From a virus (Duplodnaviria > Heunggongvirae > Uroviricota > Caudoviricetes), in the IMG/VR virus record IMGVR_UViG_2519899780_000005: a stretch of 47,693 bases of DNA. The stretch is one strand, 5' to 3'. The position numbers were made by a program, and so were the translations under genes. Below, piece by piece: positions 26,485 through 36,052 of this stretch. The notes under the pieces were generated by a model that was not told where the DNA came from, ran no database searches, and saw only the letters and a list, made by a program, of their open reading frames with translations. The stretch's first letter is position 1. The number at the start of each line of letters is the position of its first letter.

Positions 26485-26577
26485 GTGTCCTCCCAAAAAG
26501 TTGGTAGTCAGAACATACCATGCTAAGCGAGGTGAAAGCACCTTTATCAAGCCCCCCGCAGATAGACTTTGTAATGG

Positions 26578-26865
26578 CTACTTCTTCAGAAATGATTCGA
26601 TGAACTCACGCCGGGGATGACGATAGTTCAGAATATCTTCTGGCATCCTCATAAAGCGGTTGTTGCCGTCTTTGGCAGTAACGAAACAGCAGTGAACTCC
26701 GCAGACATCCGTTTTGATCGTGTCGCCATACTCAAAAAGCAACTGCGCCATCTTCTCTTGCCATTCTTGCGGCATAGCCTCCATGAATACTCTCGGCATC
26801 ACGCAGAACGACGCATGCGTCAGGCCAAACCACAATTGCAGGTCTTTACGATATTCTTCATCCAT
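26578..26865 (-). CDS. Hypothetical protein (95 aa)
   Basis: Complete ORF between spanin genes and cos; modest RBS; no family recognised. Confidence 0.45.
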   Translation of the reverse strand: MDEEYRKDLQLWFGLTHASFCVMPRVFMEAMPQEWQEKMAQLLFEYGDTIKTDVCGVHCCFVTAKDGNNRFMRMPEDILNYRHPRREFIESFLKK

Positions 26866-27083
26866 CGTCTTTACCTTTGTTGCAATAAAAAGCCCCGCGA
26901 ATGCGAGGCTAAATCCTGGTGTTTGTGATGACTGGCTCTTATCTCAACGCAGCCCCTTACCGCGCGCAAGATGCTCAATATCAAGCATCAGCAATGAGAT
27001 GTTAAATCTGGATTCACTCCAGAAGTGATCACCACCCTGTCTACAGAGCCAGATGTGAAGGATGATGAGTAAAATTATCGCTA

Positions 27084-27551
27084 TCATCGAAGGCATTGCG
27101 TCCTGATGTATTCCTGAAGCGTTCTCAGTGCTGTTTGGTCGCGGATAATTCCGTCCCGGATACCGAGAACGTTTCGTCCAGCAACTGGAGAGAGTTCGAC
27201 GGTGGCATCATTGCCCATGCCGGAGGCGCTGGAGGTTTCGGCTGAGGATGGCACAGGGCATTTTCCTTTGACGAGCACCCTGCCACCATTATCAAGCTTG
27301 CGACGAAGAGCATCATTTTCAGCTTTCGCATCAGCTAACTCCTTCGTGTATTTTGCATCGAGCGCAGCAACATCACGCTGACGCATCTGCATGTCAGTAA
27401 TTGCCGCGTTCGCCAGCTTCAGTTCTCTGACATTTTTGTCGCGCTGGGCTTTGTAGGTAATGGCGTTATCACGGTAATGATTCAGCCCCAGACTAAGCAC
27501 ACCACAGGCTACCAGCAGGACAATAATCACCACACACAGAACACGGTTCAT
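27084..27551 (-). CDS. Rz: Inner-membrane spanin Rz (start at MNRVLCVV)
   Basis: N-terminal TM segment then coiled-coil (…[47 protein letters not shown]…); contains the embedded Rz1 frame. Confidence 0.85.
27125..27331 (-). CDS. Rz1: Outer-membrane lipoprotein spanin Rz1 (embedded in the +1 frame of Rz)
   Basis: Lipoprotein signal LIMVAGC followed by Pro-rich mature region [11 protein letters not shown]. Confidence 0.8.
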
Positions 27552-27552
27552 A

Positions 27553-27639
27553 TCACCACCAACGGATTGTCCAGACCAGAACAGCAATGGCCACAATACG
27601 AATGGCAAATGCCATTGCCCGAATAAGTTCAGCACTCAT
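27553..27639 (-). CDS. Tiny hydrophobic ORF d (28 aa, [28 protein letters not shown])
   Basis: Single predicted TM helix; its stop overlaps the Rz start (tggtgatATG); homologous to the TM segment of ORF c. Confidence 0.3.
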
Positions 27640-27650
27640 CTTTTTAAAGT

Positions 27651-27773
27651 TCACGATTTCAGCGCAATGACCAGTTTTGCCAGCCCATACAGCATCGGAG
27701 ACACAGCAATACCAACAGCCACCCACTTAATAGCAAAAGCCAGCGCTCTGCTGATGTCATCAGTCACTGTCAC
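27651..27773 (-). CDS. Tiny hydrophobic ORF c (40 aa, GTG start, …ISRALAFAIKWVAVGIAVSPMLYGLAKLVIALKS)
   Basis: C-terminal part of track ORF 27651..27923; GTG start overlaps the stop of ORF b. Confidence 0.3.
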   Translation of the reverse strand: MTVTDDISRALAFAIKWVAVGIAVSPMLYGLAKLVIALKS

Positions 27774-27901
27774 CCCAGCAGCCCCGACGAAGACAACATC
27801 ACCCAGGCGAGGGACAGAAAAAGAGCAACCAGCATTAGTGAAAATGAAATACCGACAATCACACACAGGACCTTTGCCGGCGTTATGAGTTTGTCTGACA
27901 T
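27770..27901 (-). CDS. Tiny hydrophobic ORF b (43 aa, MSDKLITPAKVLCVIVGISFSLMLVALFLSLAWVMLSSSGLLG)
   Basis: ATG preceded by AAGGGG; below the 60-aa cutoff so absent from the ORF track; hand-translated. Confidence 0.3.
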   Translation of the reverse strand: MSDKLITPAKVLCVIVGISFSLMLVALFLSLAWVMLSSSGLLG

Positions 27902-27903
27902 AG

Positions 27904-27999
27904 CTACCCCTTAATTGCCACAATTAACTGGGATACTACCCATAAAAAAGGGATGCTCCAGACCAGCAAAAATTTCCAGTTTGGTAATTGACTAATCAT
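27904..27999 (-). CDS. Tiny hydrophobic ORF a (31 aa, MISQLPNWKFLLVWSIPFLWVVSQLIVAIKG)
   Basis: ATG preceded by GGGAG; the longer track ORF 27904..28116 would have to read through a terminator hairpin. Confidence 0.3.
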   Translation of the reverse strand: MISQLPNWKFLLVWSIPFLWVVSQLIVAIKG

Positions 28000-28065
28000 G
28001 AGTCGCAACTCCCTAATCAGTTTGCTAAAATCAATCAAGGCAGCCTCCCATAGCTTACTGCCATA

Positions 28066-28105
28066 AAAACAAAACCCCGCTTGCTGCCAACAAACGGGGT
28101 TTTTA
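28066..28105 (-). terminator. Rho-independent terminator immediately downstream of the endolysin gene
   Basis: Minus strand aaaaCCCCGTTTG-ttggcag-CAAGCGGGG-ttttgttttt: 9-bp stem, 7-nt loop, T-run. Confidence 0.6.
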
Positions 28106-28193
28106 CTTTTATTCACTTACATTTTGCCAGTTCGCAGGATTTCGTGTTATCCGTCCGCCTTGGCCAACGTCATTTATTAGCAAAATATTCTGC

Positions 28194-28727
28194 TTATCTG
28201 TCGATTCCCCAGCACGCCAGCGCGCTCTCCTGGTCACGACGGGATACCTGACCGTAACAGTTATTTGAGCGAATACGGCAGTCTCTGCCACCGTCCTTAA
28301 TCCACCAGCGAATCGCCTCACATGCTCCCCTGCGATCACCAGCATTAATTCGTCTGTAAAACGTCGACGGGAAACACTTACCGGGACCAATGTTGTACGG
28401 ACAGAATGACGCGATCCCCGCTTTCTGGGGTTCGGTCAATGGCACTCTGATGTTTTTCTCCACCCATGCCAGCGCCTTATCACGTTCGATGGCGTTAACC
28501 TGGTCGCATTTCTCCTTCGACAACTTCATGCCCGGGACGACAGGTTTACCATCCACCAGAATGGCACCGCGACAGATGGTCCAGATACCCGCGCCATCAC
28601 GGTATGCCGTGGTGTGGTTACCTTCCTTTTCATCCAGAAACTGGTCGAGAATGTCAGGCGCAGGCGCACCAGCGGCAATCAGCGCCAGAACGGCAGCCGA
28701 CAGGCCGTATTTGATTTTGGTGTTCAT
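28194..28727 (-). CDS. R: Endolysin R (lysozyme with N-terminal signal-anchor, SAR type)
   Basis: 177 aa; N-terminal hydrophobic segment; position in the lysis cassette. Confidence 0.9.
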   Translation of the reverse strand: MNTKIKYGLSAAVLALIAAGAPAPDILDQFLDEKEGNHTTAYRDGAGIWTICRGAILVDGKPVVPGMKLSKEKCDQVNAIERDKALAWVEKNIRVPLTEPQKAGIASFCPYNIGPGKCFPSTFYRRINAGDRRGACEAIRWWIKDGGRDCRIRSNNCYGQVSRRDQESALACWGIDR

Positions 28728-28769
28728 GGATATTTATCAGGATTTATCGGCAACAGATAACGAGCCAGC

Positions 28770-29576
28770 TTATATACGTCCTTTAAGATAAGTCAGTCCT
28801 GGATGAAACCAGTAAGCCGGCACTTTTTTAAAGGGCGGATTATCAAAATCACGAAGAAGAGCCTCCCGCACAACTGCATCCTTGTCCGCACCACTGGCCA
28901 GCGCTTCAATCTCAGCAGCTATCTGCAGATATCCCATGCAACGGCCAACGCGCTTCATCAGCCCCTGCTTTTTATTGTTCTTCAGGTAATCAATGGCAAA
29001 TTCAATGAGCGCCTCACTATGCTGGTGCGATGGCGGTGTTAATTTCCCATTTTCTGAGATGGTTATTTTCCCGCCATCTCCGTATACAACAAAGGATGGC
29101 CGGTTACACTCCCATTCCTGATCTTTATCAGGTGCAGACGCAATAAAATAACGTTTATTTCCTTCCTCTCCGGCACTTTTAACCGTAATGGAGTACTCAG
29201 ACTGCAGACAAGACGCCTCTTTTTCTGACCGCAGTGTTGACGGCGGCATCTTCAGAGAACCAGTAATTCTTCCCGGTAGCTTTCCTTTGTAGGTTATCAA
29301 CACATCCTGCGCCTCTAAAATTATGGGGCGCTTTTCCGGCAACGGTTCGTTCCCTTCACATAACCCGGCAGCAACATCCATGAAAAACTGCTTCGCCTGC
29401 TTTTTCGCCTCAGCTTCGTAAAACTCCAGCGTGGCACCTTCAGTACGGTCAAGACTAATCGCCACATCTGGCAACAACAGTGACGGATACCCACCAATTT
29501 CCAGTGCCACAGTAACAGTAATCTTATCCGGATAATTATTTATCCCTTTAACACCCAGTTCGTATTTTTTCTTCAT
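28770..29576 (-). CDS. Hypothetical 268-aa soluble protein inserted between holin and endolysin
   Basis: ATG 4 nt after the holin stop with GGGGGAG SD inside the holin 3' end; ends 42 nt before the endolysin start; no TM or signal peptide; no family recognised. Confidence 0.6.
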   Translation of the reverse strand: MKKKYELGVKGINNYPDKITVTVALEIGGYPSLLLPDVAISLDRTEGATLEFYEAEAKKQAKQFFMDVAAGLCEGNEPLPEKRPIILEAQDVLITYKGKLPGRITGSLKMPPSTLRSEKEASCLQSEYSITVKSAGEEGNKRYFIASAPDKDQEWECNRPSFVVYGDGGKITISENGKLTPPSHQHSEALIEFAIDYLKNNKKQGLMKRVGRCMGYLQIAAEIEALASGADKDAVVREALLRDFDNPPFKKVPAYWFHPGLTYLKGRI

Positions 29577-29580
29577 CGCT

Positions 29581-29796
29581 TTACTCCCCCCGCGCCGCCT
29601 TACGACGGTCCTCTCTGATTTTGAAATACAGGTTAGTCAGATATGTCAGCAGCCCAAACAGCAGACTCCCCAGCACGCCTATTGCCGCCCACTGAGACGG
29701 GGAAACCCTGTCCAGCAACTGCAGGAACCAGTAGCCCGTTCCCACCGCTGACGTGGTGTATGACACACCTGTTGTGATTTTTTCCATCTGGTACAT
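29581..29796 (-). CDS. S: Holin S (71 aa, dual-start motif MYQM)
   Basis: [29 protein letters not shown]… with two TM segments and charged C-terminus; recalled similarity to Stx-phage holins. Confidence 0.9.
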
Positions 29797-29946
29797 ACCC
29801 CGTCTCCCGTTATCCGGAAGCTGACAACAATAAAAAAAGCCACCAGTTAAGTACTGATGGCTCTGATAACTCATGCAGGCATCTCAGACGACCCACTGAC
29901 ACTACCGGTGAGTTTAACGATACCTTCCATTTGACTGGCTCACTTT

Positions 29947-31800
29947 TTATGATGATGCCGGTGCATTTATCTCCAGCACCAGACTTTCTATCTCAACGCC
30001 ATACGCTGCATTTTTGGTAATATCCGTCAGCGTCAGCGCATTCAGCCCCAGTGTCAGACTGTCTTTTATGACCTGGAATGCCGGGCCAGCCACTCCATTC
30101 AGTTTCGGAGTAACCGTGGCACTGCCGGCGGTGAACACCAGCTCCAGCGTCTGCCAGTCGTTACTGTAATTCCCGAACTCGCCCAACTTTGTGTTTCCTG
30201 CTTTCTTGTGATGCATCAGATTCAGTTTGCCGTCTGTGGTCTGGGTGAAGAACGACATCAGGAACGGGTTACCAGTCCCGGTCATCGCCACGACGTCAGG
30301 TAACGCTACATCGGTATACAGATAAATTCCCAGACCGAACTGATTGTTGGTCAGTGCGCCTGACAGTCGAAACTTACAGCTCAGTCTGCCACCCCGTGTC
30401 AGCAGGGAGACTGCGTCATCCACCGGGCGCGTCAGGGACCAGGCTTTATTGCTCTGCTTGGCGATCTTAAATACACCACCCGACAACTGAATTCCGCCGT
30501 CCTTAATGGTCCAGCCCTGCGCAGCAGCCTCTCCGGCTGTCGGCAGCAGGGAGATTGTGCGAACGGACGTATCTGCAGACGGACCCGATGGCGTGTCGCC
30601 GCCGGGCGAGGGTTTGATTTCCGGTGCCTTACCACTGATGAAGGCTGAGGTGCGCCCGGCTACGTTCAGAATAGCAGTTGCCATACGATCGGGAATAATG
30701 CCACGACGCGCCCATGAGCTGAAATGCGTCGGGCGATTTGATGATACCCAGTTTTTGTTCGTTCGGGATGCCGAACCGTAATAACCAGACCCGGCAATAT
30801 CAGGATCTTCTGACGGGTTGTTTGTCGGTGTATTAACTCCGCTACCATCGGTCATAAAGGGAACAAAATAAATCTGCTGGGATTCTTTACCTTTATATGC
30901 ACCATATACCACTTCATATTGCGTACCGTGTTCTTGTTTCCACGCGTATGTCGTGTCGCCACAAATCCAGGGGACTGATGCCGGACTTCCACCGTGACAC
31001 TGCGCTGCCAGCCCGGCAAGGTCAGCACGGAACTGCTGTACCATTGCAAGAAATGCTGCTGGCTGCTGGGCGTAACTGGCATTCGTCATATCGAATTCCC
31101 CCTGCATCCAGCATATCGCCAGCAAAACGTTTTTCGGGTTTTTCTGCAATGCTGCCTTCGTGCGGAAAAGCAGATCCTGATATAACGGCTTACCCACTCC
31201 CCAGCGAGCCGAATCCTGACTGGCCCCCGTGGACTCGCTGAATGTCCCCTCCGTGCCCTGGGTGAATGCCGAACCACCACGACAGCATGGTACCAGCAGG
31301 ATCCCCGCATTATTAGGGATATACGGAAGCAGTTTTTTGGCAATATGTAAGCCCTGGCCGACACAGCCGTACTGCCCTTTGCTCAGGTCAGCCCGGGGAT
31401 GGTTAATCGTACTCATATCCTGAACATCATGCAGACAATGGTCAGCAGGAATGATGTCGTTAAATACGCATACTTCACCACCGGGAGTCACTGTGTTACG
31501 ACGGGCCAGTTGCTTAATGCGCGGATGGGGCGCATCGTATGAATCCGGAAGCGGAAGCCCTTCACCGTAAGCCATGGCATTGGACTGCCCGGCCAGTACG
31601 ATGACGTAGTACCACTCCGGCTCAGTTGCACCACTGACGACCACATCACCTTCTGCTGCAATCGCCTGCATCAGGGTATAAGGGGTTATGGCCACCGGAC
31701 TACCAAACGGCTGCCAGCCCTCTTTCAGTTTATGTGTCAGCTTTTCCGCAAGATCTGACGGCGACGCCGCCCTGACAACATCATAGTGTTTAAATGCCAT
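29947..31800 (-). CDS. nanS-p: NanS-p-like sialate O-acetylesterase (SGNH/SASA hydrolase with DUF1737-like N-terminus); ORF-track start is 31815
   Basis: GQSNAMAYGEG catalytic motif; ~620 aa; position immediately upstream of the holin as in Stx-converting phages. Confidence 0.8.
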   Translation of the reverse strand: MAFKHYDVVRAASPSDLAEKLTHKLKEGWQPFGSPVAITPYTLMQAIAAEGDVVVSGATEPEWYYVIVLAGQSNAMAYGEGLPLPDSYDAPHPRIKQLARRNTVTPGGEVCVFNDIIPADHCLHDVQDMSTINHPRADLSKGQYGCVGQGLHIAKKLLPYIPNNAGILLVPCCRGGSAFTQGTEGTFSESTGASQDSARWGVGKPLYQDLLFRTKAALQKNPKNVLLAICWMQGEFDMTNASYAQQPAAFLAMVQQFRADLAGLAAQCHGGSPASVPWICGDTTYAWKQEHGTQYEVVYGAYKGKESQQIYFVPFMTDGSGVNTPTNNPSEDPDIAGSGYYGSASRTNKNWVSSNRPTHFSSWARRGIIPDRMATAILNVAGRTSAFISGKAPEIKPSPGGDTPSGPSADTSVRTISLLPTAGEAAAQGWTIKDGGIQLSGGVFKIAKQSNKAWSLTRPVDDAVSLLTRGGRLSCKFRLSGALTNNQFGLGIYLYTDVALPDVVAMTGTGNPFLMSFFTQTTDGKLNLMHHKKAGNTKLGEFGNYSNDWQTLELVFTAGSATVTPKLNGVAGPAFQVIKDSLTLGLNALTLTDITKNAAYGVEIESLVLEINAPASS

Positions 31801-31993
31801 GGTTCTTTCCACCATCTGAAAAATGATTCTTTAAAATACCTGACATGTAATACAGAAAAAACACAAAACCATACCTTAATTAAAAACCTCATCATCAAGC
31901 AGATATGCATGGATAAACTACAAGACGAGATATAAACCACCCTGCATTTAAATAAACAATAAACAACATCAGAAAAATAATTCTGCTCTATGG

Positions 31994-32843: not shown

Positions 32844-33200
32844 CTACCCCAGATGAGTAATCCGAAGTTCATCCATACCACAGGTCCTGGCTATTCTGTT
32901 GTACTCCTGAACAAGAGCAAATAATTCTGAATTAGCCACCATGAACTCATCGCAAACCCTCTGTATAGCATCACTATTCAGAATAATAACGTCTCTTCCC
33001 GAAAGACGATCAGGAGTACAGAACAAAACTGTCAAACGGCTGAAGGCCTTTGCTCGTTCTGCATTGACTATATCAATACGCTGCCTAAGGATGAAACACC
33101 CCGACGCCTCATCAATATTCACTCTACCCACACCATATGAATGATAAATATTTAATGCTGAAAAAACCATTAGACCGTATAACAAACACTCAATCAACAC
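32844..33200 (-). CDS. Hypothetical 118-aa protein occupying the position where stx genes sit in Stx phages
   Basis: ORF directly downstream of the tRNA cluster in the late transcript; start codon uncertain (GTG at 33200 or ATG near 33170). Confidence 0.4.
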   Translation of the reverse strand: MLIECLLYGLMVFSALNIYHSYGVGRVNIDEASGCFILRQRIDIVNAERAKAFSRLTVLFCTPDRLSGRDVIILNSDAIQRVCDEFMVANSELFALVQEYNRIARTCGMDELRITHLG

Positions 33201-33307: not shown

Positions 33308-33384
33308 TGGCGCGCTGTACTGGATTCGAACCAGTGACCGATTGCTTAGAAGGCAATTGCTCTGTCCGGCTGAGCTAACAACGC
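33308..33384 (-). tRNA. tRNA-Arg (anticodon UCU)
   Basis: Cloverleaf folds by hand: acceptor GCGTTGT/ACAGCGC, anticodon loop CUUCUAA, T-arm GGTTCGAATCC, 3' CCA; probably argO or argN of Stx-phage nomenclature. Confidence 0.85.
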
Positions 33385-33397
33385 ATGATGCAGATAA

Positions 33398-33474
33398 TGG
33401 ACCGCCATCGGGGACTTGAACCCCGCGCAGCCAGCTTCGAAGGCTGGCGCTCTATCCCGATGAGCTAATGGCGG
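33398..33474 (-). tRNA. tRNA-Arg (anticodon UCG)
   Basis: Anticodon stem CCAGC/GCTGG with loop CUUCGAA, T-arm GGTTCAAGTCC, 3' CCA. Confidence 0.8.
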
Positions 33475-33481
33475 TATGTGA

Positions 33482-33557
33482 TGGTGGCCCTTGCTGGATT
33501 TGAACCAGCGACCTGGCGATTATGAGTCGCTCGCTCTCACCACTGAGCTAAAGGGCC
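33482..33557 (-). tRNA. ileZ: tRNA-Ile2 / Met-like (anticodon CAU)
   Basis: GGCCCTTTAGCTCAGTGGT…ACTCATAATCG…GGTTCAAATCC…CCA; CAU anticodon in an Ile2-like body. Confidence 0.8.
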
Positions 33558-35230: not shown

Positions 35231-36052
35231 CTATCGCGTTACCCTCTTTAACTGCCGCTCCGCCCATGCCTCTTCAATGTCAAACCGAACCACCAACGTA
35301 TCGTAAAAGCGTTTCACTGATTTTTTCCACGTATCAAGCGTGATAGCACTCGTCACTTTGCATATGGCATTAAATGCCTCCGTTGATGGCAGCCTTTCAC
35401 AGCCACGACCACCACAACGCTGGCAATCTCTGATAACAGGCATACCACGTTTTACCGACTCTTCACGATGAATGGCGACACCACGCCCACGGCAATCCTT
35501 ACAGGCGGTGGAAACCTCACCCTTTCCGCCACACTCCGGACAGGCAACTTTTACCACCTCCCTGACTTTTTTCCATTCTTCCCAGTAAGACGGATACACG
35601 CCTTTTGTGCACTTTGCCCACACTGGTGGCTTACCATCCGGATACTGGATCTTGTTTGTAAAAACCTCGCTTTCAATAAATTTTTTTCCGTGACAGCAGG
35701 GGCACTGTTTTTTGCTCGCCGCGCTACGGGCATAATCTTCAAACGCATACGAAGCCATAATGCGCATCACTACCGGTTTTATTTCTGCCGGAAGTTTTCT
35801 CAACGCCGCCACACGATCGCACCGACTGAGTGCATAATCTGCCAGTAATTCTGTTGCCCGCGCCCTGTCATTCATACTGATGCCCATTTTCCCCAGGAAC
35901 GCAGAAAACCCCATCTCAGCCCGATTCTGTGTCATGCCCTGCGCGGCCATCACATCAGTGATACTCAGCGCATCTTTTGACGTTGAGGCCGATGCATCGG
36001 TCAGGCCAGGGGATTTTGGGGAGTAGTATTTCGGTAAATCTTCCAGTTTCAT
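35231..36052 (-). CDS. Q: Late-gene antiterminator Q
   Basis: 273 aa with several CxxC zinc-binding pairs (CPCCHGKK, CPECGGKG, CKDCRGRG, CQRCGGRG); upstream of tR' and the lysis genes. Confidence 0.8.
   Translation of the reverse strand: MKLEDLPKYYSPKSPGLTDASASTSKDALSITDVMAAQGMTQNRAEMGFSAFLGKMGISMNDRARATELLADYALSRCDRVAALRKLPAEIKPVVMRIMASYAFEDYARSAASKKQCPCCHGKKFIESEVFTNKIQYPDGKPPVWAKCTKGVYPSYWEEWKKVREVVKVACPECGGKGEVSTACKDCRGRGVAIHREESVKRGMPVIRDCQRCGGRGCERLPSTEAFNAICKVTSAITLDTWKKSVKRFYDTLVVRFDIEEAWAERQLKRVTR

Follow-up and report, generated by a model that had tools for sequence, protein, structure and literature searches.

The virus record IMGVR_UViG_2519899780_000005 (Caudoviricetes) raises the question of what lies between the endolysin gene R and the spanin gene Rz of its lysis cassette. 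The stretch analysed here, called the window, is 47,693 nt long, and its endolysin-to-Rz interval covers 641 nt. By sequence comparison, this interval is an insertion relative to cassettes in which R adjoins Rz. A first-pass annotation had placed a strong terminator and four tiny open reading frames (ORFs) for hydrophobic peptides in it. From the compared sequences, we tentatively read the interval as a module of micro-genes, conserved and mosaic, within the lambdoid late (lysis) operon; its peptides would be accessory lysis modulators. They would be accessory because R directly abuts Rz, overlapping it, in the K-12 prophages Qin and DLP12.

The four ORFs, named a to d from 5' to 3', are the following:

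27904-28038, minus strand, ORF a: 44 aa, (M)IDFSKLIRELRLMISQLPNWKFLLVWSIPFLWVVSQLIVAIKG; TTG start 5 nt after GGGAGG
27770-27901, minus strand, ORF b: 43 aa, MSDKLITPAKVLCVIVGISFSLMLVALFLSLAWVMLSSSGLLG; ATG start 5 nt after AAGGGG
27651-27773, minus strand, ORF c: 40 aa; GTG start in a GTGA overlap with the stop of b; alternative GTG at 27767
27553-27639, minus strand, ORF d: 28 aa; ATG start 11 nt past the stop of c, without a Shine-Dalgarno sequence

The array, counted from the first codon of a through the stop codon of d, has 486 nt, of which only 13 are non-coding. The AAGGGG ahead of b consists of the Lys-Gly codons that close ORF a (..IKG), and c and d have no good Shine-Dalgarno sequence of their own. 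The earlier claim that each ORF has a ribosome-binding site or a stop/start overlap held for a and b (Shine-Dalgarno) and for c (GTGA overlap); d has neither. The last ORF was also said to overlap the start of Rz, which was not the case, since d stops at 27555-27553 and the ATG of Rz is at 27551, leaving a 1-nt spacer. For its Shine-Dalgarno sequence, GGTGGTGA, Rz uses the Trp-Trp-stop codons of d (..RWW-stop). The loci used for comparison were collected for their similarity to the peptides, which makes the sample biased and redundant, and the locus counts given here and below are not prevalences. The junction CGTTGGTGGTGATATG before Rz occurred 131 times in the loci examined, and the 1-nt spacing from stop to start was found at more than 230 junctions ahead of Rz or of a lipoprotein gene.

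All four peptides were confirmed as hydrophobic. Each has a 19-residue window with a mean Kyte-Doolittle hydropathy of 1.9-2.9 and space for a single hydrophobic helix, leaving no more than about 22 residues outside the membrane. The AlphaFold2 (AF2) model of ORF a has helices at 4-17 and 21-43 with a break at LPN (predicted local distance difference test score, pLDDT, 83), so that a is predicted to consist of an amphipathic N-terminal helix and one transmembrane helix. The sizes first given needed a correction for a. Depending on the annotation pipeline, a is called with 31, 44 or 70 aa and c with 38, 40 or 51 aa. The 44-aa form of a is the most probable one, and not the 31-aa form (internal ATG at 27999, probably the start taken in the first-pass annotation) or the 70-aa form, because relatives from six genera start with M-[IVF]-DFSKLIRE.. 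at the same codon. The 70-aa version with a GTG start, sometimes called by the Prokaryotic Genome Annotation Pipeline (PGAP), crosses the terminator hairpin and is probably an over-extension. The RefSeq protein WP_042004856.1 (51 aa; locus L003 3388-3543, corresponding to window 27651-27806) is a model of c that starts 11 codons upstream, within b; its start, apparently a CTG codon, is probably mis-called.

Judged from the comparison of homologous sequences, a to d are very probably real membrane-peptide genes. Other cassettes contain each ORF alone at the same size, or in another order. The ratio of nonsynonymous to synonymous differences (pN/pS) was summed over pairs of distinct sequences without correction for tree or recombination, from sequences that recombine and are partly redundant; it was minimal in the called frame for all four families:

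family a: called frame 0.50, +1 frame 0.76, +2 frame 1.68
family b: called frame 0.34, +1 frame 0.87, +2 frame 1.76
family c: called frame 0.41, +1 frame 0.62, +2 frame 2.29
family d: called frame 0.25, +1 frame 0.89, +2 frame 1.52

The start codon of ORF a is TTG in the window, ATG in locus L107 and GTG in loci L104 and L106 and in H-19B, SPN3UB and pPE4, and the residues after this variable codon stay IDFSKLIRELR. Between c and d many third codon positions differ and RA-AFAI--VA is retained. A member of the b family has been detected in translation data. XECs191 (MMGWLMISDKLITLVKSLCVLVGISFLVMLVAIFFSTAWRVLTLSGLVG) was listed among 465 translated novel small genes of E. coli O157:H7 Sakai, with a transcriptome value of 30.0 and a translatome value of 12.6 reads per kilobase per million (RPKM) in LB, a ribosome coverage value (RCV) of 0.43, a coverage of 0.55 and one predicted inner-membrane helix (Huecker et al. 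2017, PMC5597208). This gene, now ECs_5707, is a direct member of the b family and lies between ant and Rz in the Stx2 prophage Sp5.

The ORFs occupy all three reading frames, with a and d in the same one, and the pipelines disagree on the starts of a and c. Such a pattern could also be left by chance ORFs or by the frameshifted remnants of one longer gene, an explanation that is scarcely credible here. Every ORF was found independently elsewhere, the substitutions are frame-specific and support coding, and virtually every sampled copy has its ORFs intact. The first-pass annotation had considered that the interval might be one longer gene in related phages; the synteny comparison showed each ORF as a separate gene elsewhere. 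Because a longer fused protein colinear with a to d was not found among 5.8 billion clustered proteins, over-extended calls apart, the pseudogene reading is close to excluded.

The peptides appear to comprise three uncharacterised phage families, namely a, b and c/d. ORF a matched phrog_6632 (E = 1.3e-12; full-length relative 1.2e-29), ORF b matched phrog_4906 (E = 4.5e-21; full-length relative 4.2e-18), ORF c matched phrog_1115, phrog_3246 and phrog_4493 (E = 6.4e-25; full-length relative 2.4e-33) and ORF d matched phrog_4493 (E = 5.8e-6) as well as phrog_3246 and phrog_1115 (full-length relative 5.5e-16). All of these (PHROG 6632, 4906 and 1115/4493/3246) are labelled as of unknown function. 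RefSeq holds the hypothetical proteins WP_001043230.1, WP_001280935.1 (b), WP_042004856.1 (c) and WP_032159578.1 (d), and PGAP annotates b, c, d and at times the 70-aa a as hypothetical proteins. The ORFs are therefore already in the databases. The species distribution was based on protein searches. The N-terminus of family a is conserved across Escherichia, Salmonella, Citrobacter, Enterobacter, Klebsiella and Providencia; an exhaustive profile search for this family returned only 34 clusters, nearly all short, with two longer repeat-type matches at the margin, and gave no link to a known family. ORF b had 103 cluster matches in the protein search, and homologues of c were found in E. coli and Salmonella. 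A scan of genome contigs with the c/d alignment gave 17 pattern matches, none of which was confirmed.

The first-pass annotation had noticed a related motif in c and d and suggested a duplication. The homology was borne out by BLASTP (9/26 identities, E = 2e-4), the common PHROGs and a common core R-A-x-A-F-A-I-[KR]-x-V-A, but a local tandem duplication was not, since the two sequences are homologous as old, diverged paralogues. The canonical c-type protein has 48 aa (MKNGLELKAPVTDDISR...ALKS; family sequence MKNGLELKAPVTDDISRAVAFAIKWVAVGIAVSPMLYGLAKLVIALKS) and the canonical d-type protein has 37 aa (MKGIEVETPASLDLTR...IRWW; full-length in phages GER2 and phiSTEC1575-Stx2k). Both types occur alone, in different phages. 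The intermediate P0048, a 38-aa c-type variant, has a d-like N-terminus on a c-like body. In the window, c is N-terminally replaced, its canonical N-terminus being lost at the junction with b, and d is an N-terminally truncated chimera with the short MSAEL N-terminus found on P0048. These comparisons suggest that the array was put together by modular recombination between diverged family members.

The stretch ahead of the peptide genes contains these features:

28104-28193, minus strand, 3' untranslated stretch of the endolysin gene with the conserved GGACGGATAACACGAAATCC element, ending at the terminator
28061-28103, minus strand, intrinsic (Rho-independent) terminator, hairpin 28103-28071 followed by a U-run, from scan and folding
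28039-28060, minus strand, leader with the Shine-Dalgarno sequence GGGAGG for ORF a; similar leaders (AAGGCAAGGGAGAA...) are found in other cassettes

The terminator claimed earlier with a 9-bp stem was confirmed and is longer than described. The terminator scan gave 15 pairs and a 3-nt loop, followed by GTTTTTATGG, with the T-run UUUUGUUUUU directly after the stem. The core CCCCGUUUGUUGGCAGCAAGCGGGG has a folding energy of -15.6 kcal/mol, and the 61-nt context reaches -24.2 kcal/mol, compared with -11.6 +/- 2.3 for shuffled sequences (z = -5.57), none of the 200 shuffles being as stable. By sequence and folding, the predicted terminator is genuine and strong. Being symmetric (A-run, stem, T-run), it could end transcripts of either strand.

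In 304 of 339 related loci, the first peptide gene is preceded within 160 nt by a CCCCG...CGGGG hairpin with a T-run, which lies a median 36 nt away from the first peptide ORF. In most of the loci without it, ant or another insert had replaced the hairpin. The 304 loci hold 21 sequence variants of the hairpin, all of which fold and keep the inner stem by paired changes; the pair at stem position 6, for example, is U.G, G-C or A-U. The hairpin was found after five unrelated endolysin types, a signal-anchor-release (SAR) lysozyme, a soluble lysozyme, GH108, GH19 and an M15 peptidase. In the M15 cassettes the endolysin gene has its own, different terminator, followed by a 93-aa gene and then by the hairpin and the peptide gene. 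Because the hairpin is kept in so many loci behind five endolysin types, hairpin and peptide genes behave as one mobile module.

The GGACGGATAACACGAAATCC element is conserved in the cassettes with a SAR lysozyme, in the Salmonella locus L017 and in the Salmonella phage SPN3UB, and the hairpin is also present without it behind other endolysins. The 3' untranslated region of the endolysin gene together with the terminator could be a small RNA derived from this region; the GGACGGATAACACGAAATCC stretch had no Rfam match and showed no convincing covariation. In Salmonella cassettes with a lysozyme, an extra hydrophobic ORF of about 30-40 aa (MSKRDVSALCFLMAAAVAISGNDGWGWLIFAGIIIL) was seen at the 3' end of the lysozyme gene, 5' of the hairpin. 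It has 36 aa in locus L110 (1235-1345), lies at about 2715-2812 in L017 as judged by eye, and has a weak match to phrog_14810.

The arrangement of the peptide genes was surveyed in 352 sequences, the 351 retrieved loci and the window:

a-b-c-d-Rz: about 80 loci, four ORFs intact
a-Rz: about 75 loci
d-Rz: about 50 loci
ant-b-Rz: about 20 loci
c-b-Rz: about 10 loci
c-Rz (Salmonella): about 4 loci
a followed by a different spanin pair (Enterobacter, GH19 endolysin): about 4 loci
c-b-c-d-Rz: about 2 loci
c-b-lipo, d-lipo, x65-c-b-lipo and a-b-lipo, without an Rz homologue and with a small lipoprotein gene next: several dozen loci together

The peptide genes are positioned between the endolysin gene and the spanin or small lipoprotein genes in all but two of the contexts examined. 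The 641-nt interval is 100% identical in a prophage of E. coli O104:H4 and in other strains. Of 5426 complete E. coli genomes, 2078 match parts of it and 587 contain at least 80% of it. The module is found in many E. coli and Salmonella prophages, including the Shiga-toxin phages H-19B and Sp5. The same N-terminus of Rz follows a, b or d, and a co-variation of the peptide family with the N-terminal transmembrane helix of Rz was rejected for this reason.

Two copies lie elsewhere. The unit of hairpin, leader and a-type peptide gene was observed between tail genes of a Citrobacter prophage (L106 3001-3138), with terminators on both sides, and between baseplate genes of phage vB_Apl-pPE4 (L352 1995-2132); it therefore behaves as a mobile unit beyond lysis cassettes. 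These copies would fit autonomous moron-type membrane proteins that ride on late operons and cause superinfection exclusion, a block of DNA injection or another change of the host membrane. The shuffling of the modules irrespective of the type of holin, endolysin or spanin points in the same direction, as does the low transcription and ribosome occupancy of the b homologue in uninduced O157 Sakai, a weak signal that spontaneous induction can also explain. We consider moron-type proteins unlikely, if not very much so. A moron has its own promoter on the 5' side and a terminator on the 3' side; here, the terminator is 5' of the ORFs and the next one follows only after Rz/Rz1. No promoter-like site was found on the minus strand from the terminator to Rz in a promoter scan of the window, and none was seen by eye between hairpin and first ORF in several relatives. 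Since the distance from hairpin to start codon is only about 30-40 nt and a promoter was not detected, expression in the lysogen is not expected. The sampled contexts are almost all lysis cassettes, and a to d had no match at E <= 1 to the defence models of PADLOC.

The interval belongs to a lambdoid late operon with the following features:

35231-36052, minus strand, antiterminator Q gene (PF03589), upstream of the interval
between Q and the tRNA genes, minus strand, DNA methylase gene
33308-33557, minus strand, three tRNA genes (CAT anticodon, Arg-TCG, Arg-TCT), 3' of the Q and methylase genes
29947-31815, minus strand, 622-aa ORF, labelled SASA-family carbohydrate esterase by PGAP in the identical O104:H4 prophage
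29581-29799, minus strand, phage-21-type holin gene (PF04971, E = 9.5e-33)
28770-29576, minus strand, 268-aa DUF1327 ORF between the holin and endolysin genes
28194-28727, minus strand, endolysin gene R, phage lysozyme of 177 aa (PF00959, E = 3.4e-24; phrog_7 endolysin; PGAP 'lysozyme')
27084-27551, minus strand, Rz, i-spanin of 155 aa (PF03245, E = 1e-31)
27125-27331, minus strand, Rz1, o-spanin lipoprotein gene embedded in Rz (PF06085, E = 3.8e-21)
26891-26910, minus strand, second terminator-like hairpin, 3' of Rz/Rz1, from the terminator scan

The endolysin has a SAR-like hydrophobic segment at its N-terminus. With the second hairpin located just past Rz/Rz1, the segment of peptide and spanin genes is bracketed by terminators. 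Three side observations concern the neighbouring genes. The tRNA trio has the same set and order as the one 5' of stx2 in Sakai Sp5. The only minus-strand ORF of at least 90 aa between the tRNA genes and the esterase gene is an unassigned 118-aa ORF at 32844-33200. In the 268-aa ORF the N-terminal DUF1327/YdfR domain (aa 1-100) is fused to a C-terminal part that matches phrog_1085; the PGAP annotation of O104:H4 shows only its first third, as an incomplete pseudogene of the YdfR family.

The Q gene upstream on the same strand is consistent with a late operon. In lambdoid late transcription, RNA polymerase modified by Q passes intrinsic terminators. In the lysogen, the hairpin would stop RNA polymerase that lacks the antitermination modification, leaving peptides and spanins silent, and after induction the Q-modified polymerase would read through it. 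Because of this property of the modified polymerase, the lysogen would not express the module, which would be switched on late along with the holin, the endolysin and the spanins. We regard late read-through as the likely way in which the peptides are expressed.

On the resulting transcript, ribosomes would initiate at a on its own Shine-Dalgarno sequence and at b on the one provided by the last codons of a. Re-initiation would follow at c through the GTGA overlap and then at d, 11 nt further on. Initiation at Rz would take place 1 nt past the stop of d, on the Shine-Dalgarno sequence within its Trp-Trp-stop codons. With starts chained in this way through a to d, the synthesis of the spanins would be tied to the translation of the peptides.

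Such an arrangement might serve translation alone, the ORFs being translated spacers that relay ribosomes from the terminator-insulated leader to Rz/Rz1 and set the spanin output, with little or no function of the peptides. The 1-nt spacing conserved before Rz and the lipoprotein gene, the C-terminal codons that double as the next Shine-Dalgarno sequence (AAGGGG before b and GGTGGTGA before Rz) and the lack of good Shine-Dalgarno sequences at c and d fit this explanation. It is nevertheless very unlikely, as amino acid changes are fewer in the called than in the shifted frames, a hydrophobic helix is retained in all families and the N-terminal motif of family a is kept across six genera. In addition, coupling needs no four tandem ORFs; one short ORF of any sequence would be sufficient.

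If the peptides themselves act, as our preferred reading of accessory lysis modulators supposes, each would insert into the inner membrane as one helix, and the N-terminal helix of a, which is conserved, cationic and amphipathic, would face the cytoplasm. There, the peptides might act as non-essential modulators of holin triggering, of endolysin release or of spanin action. The link to lysis is their near-constant position between endolysin and spanin. A modulation of lysis by the peptides is thus a possibility that we take seriously without holding it to be probable.

The comparison with known lysis proteins gave no family assignment. The peptides a to d had no match in Pfam at E <= 1 to 5 and none in NCBIfam, and profile searches against the PDB gave nothing meaningful. 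Pinholin-like peptides had been proposed, but a to d have one helix each, where a pinholin has two, the first of them able to leave the membrane, and match no holin or pinholin family of Pfam. A long periplasmic coiled-coil domain, as in an i-spanin, is absent, and the true Rz/Rz1 pair lies downstream. No lipobox of an o-spanin was found, the sole cysteine being in b (KVLCV) in a context unfit for a lipobox. Antiholins and timing modulators such as lambda S107, phage 21 S71, P1 LydB, P2 LysA and T4 RI are non-essential, membrane-associated and tune the firing of the holin. S107 and S71 are made from the holin gene itself by use of another start; LysA spans the membrane with four helices, and RI carries a periplasmic domain. 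The role proposed for a to d is alike, but there is no sequence similarity, and a to d are encoded 3' of the endolysin gene behind a terminator.

Two systems may serve, by analogy, as precedents for lysis modulators of this kind. Phage Mu has the releasin gp25, a membrane-anchored accessory lysis protein other than a holin, which is made late from a gene a few positions 3' of the endolysin gene and occurs with both SAR and cytoplasmic endolysins (PMC9239132). It has 99 aa, an N-out/C-in topology, a 73-aa cytoplasmic domain and DUF2730, whereas a to d (28-44 aa) together with their relatives have 28-48 aa, no more than some 22 residues beyond the membrane and no match to DUF2730 or to any other Pfam family. 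LysZ of corynephages and mycobacteriophages is an extra membrane protein of the lysis cassette that was recognised recently, was found by synteny and is required for lysis (bioRxiv 10.1101/2025.06.24.661397). It sets a precedent for further membrane functions hidden in lysis cassettes. By its description, LysZ acts in different hosts and envelopes, and the lipomannan/lipoarabinomannan (LM/LAM) barrier that it targets has no obvious counterpart here.

The peptides resemble two further groups in size, single hydrophobic helix and prophage location. Type I toxins (Hok, Ldr, Ibs, TisB, ZorO) and moron proteins (HK97 gp15) are small, hydrophobic, single-helix proteins carried by prophages. If one or more of these small, hydrophobic peptides were a type I toxin, it would be kept in check by an antisense RNA whose 3' end is set by the bidirectional terminator, and the symmetric hairpin could indeed end plus-strand transcripts. 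A promoter-like site on the plus strand at 27895-27924 (CTGACA, 18 nt, TG-CACAAT) is directed antisense through ORF a toward the terminator. The site, however, matches at 9 of 12 positions, and the scan found 4 such sites in total compared with 3.8 in shuffled sequences, which corresponds to chance frequency. Neither an antitoxin nor any other RNA family of Rfam was matched in the region 26500-30500 at E <= 1, no promoter for a toxin mRNA was found by the scan, and the genes are chained in an operon, unlike stand-alone type I loci. Toxins checked by antisense RNA are therefore highly improbable.

Several points weigh against lysis modulators. The role in lysis is a guess by analogy, drawn from gene position and precedent, and a to d have no homology to a characterised holin, antiholin, releasin, spanin, toxin or defence protein. 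The peptides accompany unrelated holins, endolysins and spanins, and these varied partners, with the same Rz N-terminus after a, b and d, argue against a co-evolved specific partner. Since the a-type module also occurs in tail and baseplate clusters, its function may be independent of lysis. The loci were drawn by their peptide similarity, and the predominance of lysis cassettes is a count from that sample, not a prevalence. The pN/pS values of 0.25-0.5 indicate moderate constraint only. The ribosome profiling signal from Sakai is weak, the cells were uninduced, and the gene is a homologue of b with 65% identity; according to the authors, these data are without reading-frame resolution (PMC5597208).

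Cassettes with a GH108 or M15 endolysin were seen to have no Rz/Rz1 homologue and to carry a gene for a lipoprotein of 51-60 aa, called lipo, after the peptide genes:

L007 3306-3461, lipo gene (phrog_7528, unknown function)
L012 3331-3486, lipo gene (phrog_7528, unknown function)
L109 1586-1768 (phage phiSTEC1575-Stx2k), lipo gene (phrog_7528, unknown function)

The Stx2k-converting phage phiSTEC1575 is one such carrier of an Rz-less cassette. The protein has an LVGC lipobox and a mature part of about 30 aa with 3 cysteines, and its gene sits at an RWW-stop-N-ATGAACCG junction exactly as Rz does. From these features, lipo could be a spanin substitute or an outer-membrane disruptor that resembles colicin lysis proteins. 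A broader proposal, which we consider quite unlikely, is that, in phages infecting Gram-negative hosts, the peptide genes make up a fourth functional class within lysis cassettes, coding for inner-membrane peptides that gate or join envelope disruption after wall degradation. With the outer-membrane lipoprotein of about 30 residues they would form a minimal replacement of the spanins where Rz/Rz1 is lacking; in the window they would act beside Rz/Rz1.

Literature searches by accession, locus tag and topic returned no description of the cassette, and a comparative paper on Stx phages made no mention of it. The ORFs are thus known to databases, and the cassette, its terminator, the shuffling and the c/d relationship, as deduced here from sequences, are undescribed in the literature found.

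In conclusion, a conserved, terminator-led set of membrane micro-genes is located inside the lambdoid S-R-Rz/Rz1 cassette, the textbook model of phage lysis, and is nearly complete in about a tenth of the complete E. coli genomes. The analysis provides correct models for four small genes that are often mis-annotated, with the TTG start of a, the truncation of c and d and the C-termini that double as ribosome-binding sites. If the peptides tune the timing of lysis or the spanin output, they would have a bearing on the release of phage and of Shiga toxin. If they act together with the small lipoprotein in Rz-less cassettes, this would point to a new route through the outer membrane.

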